Of a stretch of 13,508 nt of DNA, positions 1 through 3,000 are shown piece after piece. The stretch's first letter is position 1; each line of letters begins with the position of its first letter. The position numbers were made by a program. This DNA comes from a virus (Duplodnaviria > Heunggongvirae > Uroviricota > Caudoviricetes): the IMG/VR virus record IMGVR_UViG_2537562192_000015; one strand, 5' to 3'.

Positions 1-3000
1 ATGCGTATAGGACAAAATCGTTTTTTGGGGGCTATACACATGTTGCTTTCAGACCTTGCTATCCGTCGCGCGAAGCCAAAAGAGAAAGCCTATACACTCA
101 ATGACGGCAACGGGCTTTCGTTACTCATTGAGCCGAACGGTTCGAAGGGCTGGCGATTGCGATACAGGTTTGCAGGCAAGCCCAAAATGTTGTCGCTGGG
201 TGTTTATCCTGAGGTGTCCCTTTCTGATGCCAGGACGGCAAGGGATGAAGCCAAAAGGCTTATCGCTGGTGGAGTTAATCCGAGTGAGGTCAGAAAGGCC
301 CAAAAGCGAGAACAGGCGAACAAATGCGGTAACACCTTTGAGGCGATCGCCCGTGAGTGGTATGAAAAACGCCTGGACAGATGGTCACAATCATATGCCG
401 CAGAGATGATTGATACGTTTGAGAAGGACGTATTCCCGTATATCGGCAGCAAACCGATAGCAGAAATAAAACCGATGGAATTGCTCGCGGTTCTCTCTCG
501 TCTTAATGACCGTGGCGCAACTGAAAAATTGCGTAAGGTTCGACAGCGATGTGGCGAAGTGTTCCGGTACGCAATAATTACCGGACGCGCTGAATATAAC
601 CCCGCTCCTGATCTGGCAAGCGCATTTGCACCACACAAGAAAGAGCATTACGCGTATCTGAAAGTTGATGAGCTACCGGAGTTTTTCCGCGTTTTTAATA
701 CGTACACCGGAAGCCAGATCGTCAAGCTGGGTATGCGATTGTTGATTCTTACAGGACTCCGCCCAGGTGAATTACGGCAGGCAGAGTGGCAGGAGATTGA
801 TTTTGATAATCGTCTGTGGGAAGTGCCGAAAGAACGAATGAAAATGCGCCGTCCTCATTGCGTGCCACTTTCAGAACAGGCGATCGCTATTCTGGAACAG
901 TTAAAACACATGACGGGGCAGTATCCGTTTATTTTCCCTGGTCGAATACAGCACAGTAAGCCGATGAGTGAAATGGCTATGAACGTGCTTATTCGTCGTA
1001 TTGGCTATGCAGGGCGCGTTACTGGTCATGGGTTCCGGCATACCATGAGTACGATTTTGCATGAGCAGGGTTATAACTCCGCGTGGATAGAAACGCAGCT
1101 GGCGCACGTCGATAAAAACTCGATCCGTGGCACATACAATCACGCGCAATACCTGGACGGACGGCAGGAGATGCTCCAGTGGTACGCCGACTATATGGAC
1201 TCACTGGAACAGGGCGGGAATGTGGTACATGGCAAGTTTGGAAAATGTGGATGACTGGTTGAGTATACAGTAGTAGACTTTGAGCGACTAAAAAGGCTGA
1301 TGCAAACCGAACTGGATCGGCCTTAACATTAGACCGCTTGAAGGGGGAGAATATGCCAATTGTGGAAAACATTCCTGACTTATCCCACTGGCGAACAGTA
1401 CAGGAGTTTTCTATCACCCAAGCCGCTTTATTGTTGGCCGGAATTGATCCTTATGATTACCCTACTCTTGAACATGCCAGAGATTATAAACATGAACGTT
1501 GGAAAATGGCATGGGGGTTGGCTAATGGAATGGTTACTGCAATTCGTCGTGGTGTATTAACTCCTGTGTGGATTGAATATTATCCTTTGTGGGAAGTACA
1601 AAGAGCATCCGGCACCCCCCGTACAGAGATACCAGATCGTTTGAAGAAAATATCCATGGACGAAACAATTATTACCCGTCATTCTTTACTTGAATGGGTA
1701 AGAAATGAGAGGGTCGATTATGTAAGACCTCCTCGCTCTATATCGGATAAGGAGATTAAGCCATCTAACCAATCAGTAATAATTGATGCTGAATCGCGCG
1801 TGATTAATTCTGAAGAAACAGTATTGCTGACTTATGGTCATAAGAGCGAAGGTCTTGAATATGTAGAAGACGCAATAAGAGAACTTTGGGCAACATATGA
1901 TCCAGATAATCAACAAACAGCCCCTACAAGAAATGATGTTGTTGAATACCTGAAAGGCAGGGGAGCGGGGCAGAACATGGCCGAGGCTGTAAACCTGATA
2001 CTACGCCCCACTGGCTTGCAGCAAGTTGGAAGAAGGAAAAGAAAAACAAATAGTTAAATAGTGCCCACCCTTCGTAAAAAAGGTGGCACTATTTGCTCAA
2101 AACTCTTTTGTTTATGGCGAGAAATCATAGTTAAGCGTGCGTTTTCTTTGCTTATTGATACTGGAATGGTGGCAGCATTATTAAAATAATAGTGGGCACT
2201 ATTCCATTGAAATAGTACCCACCATTAAAAATAGTACCCACCTATAAATATGTTTTCCTTTTATGCATCATTGTAGACGGTTATAGACGTTACGAGGATT
2301 GAATATGTCAAATAACTTACTTCGTCTTTCTGATGTTATGCGCCGTACTGGTTATGGTCGCGCTTGGATTTATCGCCTGATCAGCCTGGGGCGCTTCCCT
2401 AAACCTGTAAAAATTGGTTCCCGCTCCGTGGCTTTTATTGAAAGTGAAGTCGACGAATGGATTAACCAGCGTATTGATGCTTCTCGCAACAACGCCGCGT
2501 AATAATCTTTTGGGAGGGGGGTATTCTCCCCCAGCACTAAACCTGATCCGACAGCAGGAGTTTTCAATGAAACGTCCGAATATGCCCGTACAGGGGCAGG
2601 GCTTCATTCAGCCTGAAATCAGCCAGAACGATATATTGATTCGCCACAAAGCAGAGTCGCGTATTGATTCCCGCGTTATTTCTGAGCGAGCAGGAATACA
2701 ACACGAAAGTATCATTGCGACGATTAAATCTCATCAATCCAGATTGCGCGAGCTTGGCTCACTGCCTCGCCAGTCAGTCAAGGAATTAACCTATTTGAAA
2801 TCGGGAAAATCTGGCCGCAAGCGCGGTCGTCCTGAAATTAGTTATTTGCTGAATGAGCTACAGCTTGACTATCTGTTACGCGTTATCCGTGGGCGTGACG
2901 CAGAACGTATCAACCAGTTCAAGCTGGATGTTACGAAGGCATTCGCGAAGCATCGCGCCGCTGAACCAGTCCGTCGCGAATATCTGCCAGGCTATCACGA

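Follow-up and report, generated by a model that had tools for sequence, protein, structure and literature searches.

The gene, its product and the sites ahead of alpA

The window analysed here is a stretch of 13,508 nucleotides from a virus of the class Caudoviricetes (IMG/VR record IMGVR_UViG_2537562192_000015). The gene under study lies near its left end, between a P4-type tyrosine integrase gene (int) and alpA. It is an open reading frame (ORF) at 1353–2057 on the plus strand, identified from the ORF list, the RefSeq coding sequence (CDS), its homologues and an AlphaFold model. It encodes a 234-amino-acid two-domain protein of an uncharacterised, putatively regulatory superfamily. A Shine-Dalgarno sequence (GGGGGAG; 1342–1348, +) was read 4 nt ahead of the ATG at 1353. 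The RefSeq CDS with identical coordinates is WP_001123241.1, a hypothetical protein. alpA starts 248 bp downstream on the same strand, leaving a gap of 247 bp.

An earlier note on this DNA had described a well-formed orphan ORF of no recognisable family. The ORF itself was confirmed by its Shine-Dalgarno sequence and the matching RefSeq CDS. The lack of a recognisable family also held for Pfam, NCBIfam, PHROGs and PADLOC, in which the protein had no match; the sole match in PADLOC-DB v2 was Csx20, at E = 0.037 and 12 bits. Searches of PDB sequences with full-length and C-terminal profiles gave noise only, and the literature contained no published experiments on the protein. The word orphan was mistaken. 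A word-indexed search found 57 full-length homologue clusters (38–100% identity), all labelled hypothetical, in Escherichia, Shigella, Salmonella, Yersinia, Enterobacter, Serratia, Erwinia, Dickeya, Pseudomonas and Azotobacter. When 1.84 billion representatives were searched exhaustively with a profile, 1,171 proteins, each standing for a cluster at 50% identity, matched at E ≤ 1e-3, and 145 matched at E ≤ 1e-10. The superfamily is absent from Pfam, NCBIfam and PHROGs, and the ORF is conserved and uncharacterised.

The AlphaFold model had a mean predicted local distance difference test score (pLDDT) of 78.5. The N-terminal domain (N-domain; residues 1–125; 1353–1727, +), delimited from the model and alignment A1, has the signature PDLSHW..EFS..QAALLL.GIDP / RWK / AIRRG.L.P. 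It is the most conserved block of A1, and its pLDDT was mostly 93–97 at residues 11–70 and 101–120 and lower between them. The linker that follows (residues 126–163; 1728–1841, +) varies in length and sequence in A1 and is predicted to be disordered, with pLDDT < 50 at residues 134–163. The C-terminal part (C-module; residues 164–234; 1842–2054, +) is a three-helix module of about 70 amino acids with a basic tail, defined from the model, the alignment and co-variation. Its signature is H.SEGL..V..AI..LW.TYD....TAPT...V..YL...GA..N.A.AV.L.LRP....GRRKRK, and the modelled helices span residues 168–179, 193–202 and 207–217. The putative recognition helix, assigned from helix–operator co-variation, covers residues 207–219 (QNMAEAVNLILRP; 1971–2009, +), of which residues 208–219 are the conserved NMAEAVNLILRP.

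The N-domain is exchanged for unrelated sequence at four loci (L050, L103, L075 and L032) and is missing from relatives of 76–80 amino acids, and the linkage to alpA is kept. The C-module also occurs alone or fused to unrelated N-termini, and alpA is then nearly always the next gene. We propose sequence-specific DNA binding as the role of the C-module, with the N-domain as an input domain for sensing or oligomerisation. Leucine-zipper-like coiled coils were seen just ahead of the C-module in N-swapped relatives (L050 residues 192–224; L032 residues 135–186), with weak bZIP/DivIC matches. Their place fits dimerisation next to a DNA-binding domain.

Five 16-bp operator-like sites lie between the stop codon and alpA. 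They have the form AATAGT-RCCC-ACYATT (AATAGTRCCCAC-type) and as 16-mers are pseudo-palindromes, AATAGT-N4-ACYATT. O1 (AATAGTGCCCACCCTT; 2057–2072, +) overlaps the stop codon, and O1′ (AATAGTGCCACCTTTT; 2078–2093, −) is its inverted hairpin partner. O2 (AATAGTGGGCACTATT; 2188–2203) is a perfect palindrome, and it is followed by O3 (AATAGTACCCACCATT; 2211–2226, +) and O4 (AATAGTACCCACCTAT; 2230–2245, +). Matches to AATAGTRCCCAC with at most two mismatches numbered seven in the window, six of them within the 190 bp between ORF and alpA, where 1.3 were expected. Over 14 loci of distant taxa, the gap showed a 17-fold enrichment of the CCCACC core. An unbiased 6-mer scan placed GCCCAC, CCCACC, TGCCCA and TACCCA at or near the top.

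The hairpin that the earlier note had seen 3′ of the ORF is real. O1 and O1′ form it at 2056–2094, with an RNA folding energy of −19.1 kcal/mol and z = −4.8 against shuffled sequences, and many relatives have a comparable inverted pair after the stop codon. As a canonical intrinsic terminator it was rejected, because the terminator scanner made no call and a T-run is absent. The alpA leader (..GTAGACGGTTATAGACGTTACGAGG..; 2273–2304, +) is conserved in alignment A3, also in L032 and L033, and contains the Shine-Dalgarno sequence of alpA. Its dyad CTCGTAA/TTACGAG in CTCGTAAACCGCAATAGACGTTACGAGG includes that Shine-Dalgarno sequence and has the same position in L002–L004, L018, L032, L033, L050 and L103. 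The leader is common even to islands with different modules in the slot between int and alpA, and it is a candidate AlpA binding element or translational hairpin.

Site sequence follows the C-terminal helix

Across about 70 loci, the sequence of the sites follows the last helix of the C-module, and none of AlpA, integrase, primase and N-domain is followed in this way. The control islands, six from E. coli, have an alpA that is a distant relative, of about 70–77% DNA identity to that of the window (AlpA 62–72% identical as protein), and a different slot gene or none; CCCACC was found in the gap of none of the six. Two of them have palindromes of their own in the same places: ACCCTNAGGGT in five or six copies in the gap of L032, and ACCGCAATTGCGGT twice in that of L031. 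The integrases of L031 and L032 are 100% identical and their gap motifs differ, so the motif does not track the integrase. Nor does it track AlpA: the L003 protein is 87% identical to that of L032, with a different motif, and only 60% identical to that of the window, with the same motif type. The motif is the same in the window and in L022, whose primases differ.

The natural domain swaps mark the C-terminal module as the part that matters for the site sequence. L050 and L103 have an unrelated N-terminal region of 225 amino acids and a helix NMAEAVNLILRP identical to that of the window, and they have the same AATAGTGCCCAC-type sites in the same layout. L034 and L036 have an N-domain nearly identical to that of the window and a changed helix, NVARAVNLILRP (M209V, E211R); their sites keep the flank AATAGT and change the core (AATAGT-GGTC-GCTATT). 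Other helices go with other sites. L006 and L027 combine the helix NLA[RK][SA]VDEVLRPF with AAACCTAnnTACTGTT, and L054 combines another helix variant with other repeats. L112, a Betaproteobacterial member, has its own repeats GGGTTAAACCC. The relatives L052–L074, which consist of the C-module only (76–80 amino acids), have tandem 20-bp palindromes, AAAACAGT-GGGT-ACCGTTTT. On the simplest reading of these comparisons, the C-module would be a dimeric sequence-specific DNA-binding domain, and gene and operators would move as one cassette. The earlier note had stated that nothing in the sequence indicates a function for the ORF. That statement is superseded by repeated site-like motifs in the alpA promoter region that co-vary with the C-terminal helix of its product.

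The pairing with alpA was examined at loci from a genome collection, IMG/VR, metagenomes and assembly look-ups, with a scripted pipeline and its own ORF calls. A C-module protein was found at 77 non-redundant loci. In 69 of the 73 evaluable loci, alpA starts 56–259 bp downstream on the same strand (median 193 bp). At the remaining loci, four contigs were too short to judge, and in four no alpA was found despite enough sequence. The gene–alpA loci span E. coli to Pseudomonas and Betaproteobacteria. The integrase gene is directly upstream in 58 of 70 evaluable loci, and in eight of the other 12, 1–6 kb separates int from the gene. In P. aeruginosa (L015), the gene–alpA pair is kept without an adjacent integrase gene.

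The inserts examined between int and the gene encode a Type ISP restriction-modification enzyme of 1,647 amino acids (L007, 2947–7890), Type III Mod and Res (L012, 3133–7742), a PAAR/DUF4225 toxin with a small downstream ORF (L014, 6109–7634) and a GNAT acetyltransferase (L009, 6981–7511). Cargo thus enters between int and the gene while the gene stays beside alpA, which ties the gene to alpA and places the variable cargo site upstream. The int-proximal cargo hotspot lies upstream of the regulator gene. The earlier note had taken the place between int and alpA for a variable slot and a frequent site of cargo or defence genes. The slot does vary among alpA islands at large, which have DUF6387 proteins, other hypothetical proteins or nothing annotated there; where the present gene occurs, it is a fixed partner of alpA. 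An int-proximal cargo and defence site likewise exists in relatives, and the ORF is not part of that cargo, which sits between int and the ORF. The gene is largely a conserved core gene among its relatives, and no defence model matches it; the suggested role as defence cargo is unlikely.

Several observations concern the slot in other islands. In E. coli islands at tRNA-Thr/proA and tRNA-Arg (L028–L033), the same slot holds unrelated proteins of 246–293 amino acids (DUF6387 or hypothetical proteins). The DUF6387, L031 and L033 proteins were considered as remote homologues and rejected, having no detectable similarity to the family. The L032 slot protein weakly shares the C-module in a local search (E ~5e-5) and has its own palindromes. 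Own palindromes ahead of alpA in at least L031 and L032 suggest that analogous regulator–operator cassettes are general. At L030 (3056–3482) and at L109, which is EcCIMP1 of E. coli MP1, the slot has no RefSeq gene and contains repeated TGTTCTTTAACAG-like words and two hairpins. EcCIMP1_002 was rejected as the present gene, because EcCIMP1 matches the L030 type without a C-module gene.

In the wider family, remote Betaproteobacterial members (WPWG-type, to which L112 belongs) retain the two-domain plan and the order int-X-alpA. No member was found in 50,697 phage records. A plasmid search gave three matches, all in records of 1.4–4.0 Mb, which probably represent chromosomal sequence entered under plasmids. 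Domain fusions were sought by scanning 78 distant members with Pfam, which gave nothing informative, and a word-indexed search with the short C-module profile gave one fragment; one distant member had one marginal match to HTH_17 (E = 0.063). In Sodalis ligni (L027, 6933–7140), the alpA 3′ of the family member looks frameshifted and is probably a pseudogene in a decaying island.

The island and its setting

The integrase gene (40–1254, +) marks the left end of the island and was identified from its RefSeq CDS and the Pfam domains Arm-DNA-bind_3, Phage_int_M and Phage_integrase. A tRNA-Gly and attL lie just 5′ of the window start; in L001, tRNA-Gly adjoins int in the RefSeq annotation. The gene alpA (2305–2502, +) encodes an AlpA-family regulator of 65 amino acids (Pfam Phage_AlpA, E = 2.5e-20) and is the presumed target of regulation. 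The window sequence is present in 17 complete E. coli genomes at 99.9–100% identity, with 16 reaching 100%. Strain 2012EL-2448 has the island at a tRNA-Gly, beside actS.

The gene order of the island is int, the ORF, alpA, a Rha-family gene, AntA and Icd-like pseudogenes, and a DUF927 primase-helicase gene, followed by genes for SSB and ProQ/FinO, three genes of the PerC family and one for a Q-like antiterminator. From int to the right flank of the island, the annotation has no structural genes. As defined for Gram-negative phage-inducible chromosomal islands (PICIs), the genes int and alpA and the primase gene have the same direction, the site is a tRNA gene, and structural and lysis genes are absent from the annotation. 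By this gene content, the host element has the layout of a Gram-negative PICI-like satellite.

The G+C content falls to 0.40–0.44 over the ORF and gap (1201–2400), against about 0.49–0.51 in int and past alpA, which fits a separate origin of the regulator–operator cassette. An AntA/AntB fragment lies together with three Icd-like pseudogene pieces, which RefSeq gives as frameshifted or partial, at 3279–5170 of the window (L001, 18080–20356). An Rfam C4 antisense RNA (RF01695) was matched inside the Icd-like region at 4893–4980 (+), with 72.9 bits and E = 5.7e-13. The match is assigned to the P4 CI-type immunity RNA, so the island would also bear an RNA-based immunity element. Further downstream are a ProQ/FinO-family gene (9538–10005), three PerC-family genes (9965–10267, 11189–11491 and 11493–11660) and the Q-like antiterminator gene (12838–13236). 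The island is one of Shiga toxin-producing E. coli (STEC). A PerC-like gene of EcCIMP1 has been shown to repress LEE1 (PMC11773190).

Regulation of alpA and comparison with known systems

AlpA is the master activator of PICIs and autoactivates its own promoter (PMC6092414; PMC11773190). In EcCIMP1, helper-dependent induction of the alpA promoter (PalpA) without a need for AlpA has been reported (PMC11773190). The predicted −10 element of PalpA in the window is CATCAT at 2266–2271 (+), corresponding to TG-n-RAnTAT in relatives and placed by its fixed +29 offset from the O4 core. The O4 core starts exactly 68 nt ahead of the alpA ATG in 20 of 23 related loci, and a manual count gave 68 nt in the window as well. 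TG-n-RAnTAT lies exactly 26 nt after the O4 core, and the intervening 20 nt are free in sequence and constant in length. At the −35 position, no match to TTGACA was found. With CATCAT as the −10 element, we infer a transcription start site near 2278, which would put the centres of O4, O3 and O2 at about −40.5, −59.5 and −82.5, with O4 overlapping the −35 position. Sites at these positions and the missing −35 match together form the geometry of a promoter that has an extended −10 and depends on an activator. This geometry is compatible with activation.

Judged from these sequence comparisons, it is most likely that the ORF protein regulates the alpA promoter through specific sequences, rather than being defence cargo. 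That it activates PalpA of this PICI-like island has, in our estimate, an even chance of being right. Activation is favoured because of the rigid promoter geometry and the precedent of BisR of the element ICEclc, a protein of 251 amino acids without a Pfam domain, which has a transcript that covers its gene alone and has been called a "very potent activator" of PalpA (PMC7423338, Carraro et al. 2020).

We speculate that regulation would proceed as follows. The C-module, probably as a dimer, would recognise the AATAGT-RCCC-ACYATT 16-bp pseudo-palindromes. RNA polymerase would be recruited by protein bound at −40.5, which would set alpA going, as BisR does at PalpA in ICEclc, and AlpA would then amplify its own expression and launch excision and replication. 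The two sites at the end of the gene itself, as an RNA hairpin, may insulate alpA from read-through of int and the ORF. The conserved yet exchangeable N-domain might gate activity, for example by sensing a helper-phage product.

Several points weigh against this proposal. Part of the co-variation could reflect gene and gap being inherited together as one recombination cassette, rather than binding. A rival −10 element, TATAAA, lies at 2243–2248, and it and a rival promoter predicted by the scanner overlap O3 and O4; if either were the true one, O3 and O4 would lie across the core promoter, an arrangement that fits repression. If an activator were transcribed together with int or beside it, its expression or activity would have to be tightly controlled, and no sign of such control is seen here. 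The early region of the island looks partly decayed, and this copy may therefore be inactive or no longer inducible. No sampled context is ICEclc-like: the gene order in the window and in sampled relatives is int-X-alpA-(Rha/HTH_39/Icd-like)-primase, and none has ParA, ParB or DUF2857.

The same module and sites could also act with the opposite sign, a possibility that we consider the main rival and somewhat improbable. The protein would then be a master repressor, a functional analogue of Stl/Rpr bound to O2–O4 across the alpA core promoter, possibly with looping to O1/O1′. It would keep the island silent until a helper-phage protein bound the N-domain and brought release. Like stl, the gene is beside int and co-oriented with it, with the regulatory region next; the proteins of the slot show great diversity, with separate operators for each, as in the diversity of Stl. 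The three tandem sites with 19–23 bp spacing, taken with the distal pair, recall the phage OR/OL layout. In 12 of 13 loci a TATAWW hexamer directly adjoins O4, where the scanner-predicted promoter across O3/O4 is again to be counted, and constitutive co-expression with int would be natural for a repressor. No repressor is known for Gram-negative PICIs, and their global repressor has been stated as unknown (PMC6092414); a repressor here would fill that gap. The rigid spacing to the downstream −10-like element and the missing −35 match nevertheless suit an activator-dependent promoter better, and a promoter so weak would need little repression. The gene is also co-directional with alpA, unlike the divergent stl and str, the C-module-only relatives of 76–80 amino acids have no obvious sensor domain for an inducer, and BisR, which alone among proteins in this position has been characterised, activates.

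Two explanations would leave the protein outside the control of alpA, and both are improbable. The ORF could be single-gene anti-phage defence or exclusion cargo at an int-proximal hotspot, with the nearby repeats unrelated to it. The region near int does bear defence genes in relatives, the G+C content of the ORF region (0.41–0.44) is below that of the flanking island (about 0.49–0.51), and EcCIMP1-type PICIs give superinfection immunity by a factor that is not known. We regard this as very improbable, since PADLOC offered no model match beyond Csx20, the partnership with alpA in 69 of 73 loci is not that of variable cargo in its own lineage, and the actual cargo inserts upstream of the gene. 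The cognate repeats at the alpA promoter co-vary with the C-terminal helix, minimal forms of 76–80 amino acids exist, and the family was not found in the 50,697 phage genomes; these too speak against defence. Alternatively, the repeats could serve AlpA autoregulation, as integrase arm-type sites, as replication iterons or as a partition centromere, with the ORF accessory or unrelated. AlpA sites must exist in the region, since AlpA autoactivates its own promoter, and iteron-like repeats are common in satellites. There is little chance of this, because the motif tracks neither AlpA (87% identical proteins with different motifs), nor the integrase (identical proteins with different motifs), nor the primase. 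The sites lie about 0.8–1 kb inside the int end of the island and so not at an att arm, and an AlpA site is better sought in the leader conserved across slot modules.

Many E. coli, STEC among them, and other Proteobacteria commonly have Gram-negative PICIs and related alpA islands, which carry virulence and defence genes between cells. How alpA stays off and how a helper phage turns it on have been stated as unknown (PMC6092414). The present analysis places a specific unannotated family with its cognate operators at the alpA control point, as a candidate for switching the island on. Helix variants matched to operator variants would amount to a natural recognition code. The cargo map is corrected, with the int-proximal hotspot upstream of the regulator, and the gene together with alpA provides a marker pair for finding such islands. 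More tentatively, and with low confidence, we speculate that, in a large class of Gram-negative alpA-type satellites and genomic islands, this superfamily provides the missing switch by which helper phages are sensed. Its portable module of about 70 amino acids would have a readable helix-to-operator code, exchangeable N-terminal sensors would serve different helper phages, and gene and operators would form one specificity cassette setting which phage induces which island.

The family was compared with known regulators. AlpA, Vis and excisionase proteins of the HTH_17 type are small DNA-binding regulators of the same islands, and by eye the N-domain pattern (EFS..QAALLL.GIDP ... IITR.SL..WV) resembles them. 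An HTH_17/AlpA-like N-domain was rejected, as there is no PF12728 or PF05930 match in Pfam and the profile–profile comparison of A1 with the AlpA alignment A2 (hhalign) was negative, with a probability of 0.3%. DUF6387 (PF19924) and other slot proteins share the slot, the strand and a similar size, whereas neither Pfam models nor profiles match them to the ORF family. In EcCIMP1, a PICI studied recently, a gene also occupies this slot; the module there is of the L030 type and not of the ORF family.

Lambda CI and Cro are similar in having a small helical DNA-binding module and tandem (pseudo)palindromic operators of 16–20 bp, spaced about 20 bp apart, at an important early promoter, and the site near −41 recalls CI at PRM. 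The present protein differs in having no HTH_3 or Peptidase_S24 match and a basic C-terminal tail, its accessory domain is N-terminal and not C-terminal, and there is no divergent promoter pair. Stl/Rpr of Staphylococcus aureus pathogenicity islands (SaPIs) and Gram-positive PICIs likewise lies beside int, co-oriented and directly ahead of the regulatory region. It is highly diverse among related islands, can have accessory genes between int and the regulator gene (here L007, L012, L009 and L014), and shares the presumed coupling of the island to a helper phage. There is no similarity in sequence or fold. Stl is divergent from str/xis (and the rep operon) and has an XRE/CI-type helix-turn-helix, whereas the ORF is co-directional with alpA and has no HTH_3/XRE match in Pfam. 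Compared with Stl, the sign of regulation here is more likely positive.

BisR of ICEclc (CAE92957.1, Pseudomonas knackmussii B13) was compared by description, size and position and not by sequence; P. knackmussii has no entry among the named family matches. BisR is driven by TciR, of which no equivalent is seen here. Its context is bisR-alpA-parA-shi-bisD(ParB)-bisC(DUF2857) on a conjugative element, whereas the window and every relative sampled represent small satellite-like islands. Both proteins have about 250 amino acids, no Pfam domain and a predicted DNA-binding part. The ORF lies just upstream of alpA and is co-oriented with it, as is bisR by our reading of ORF numbering and a primer table. 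BisR acts on the alpA promoter, and the ORF protein is proposed to do the same.

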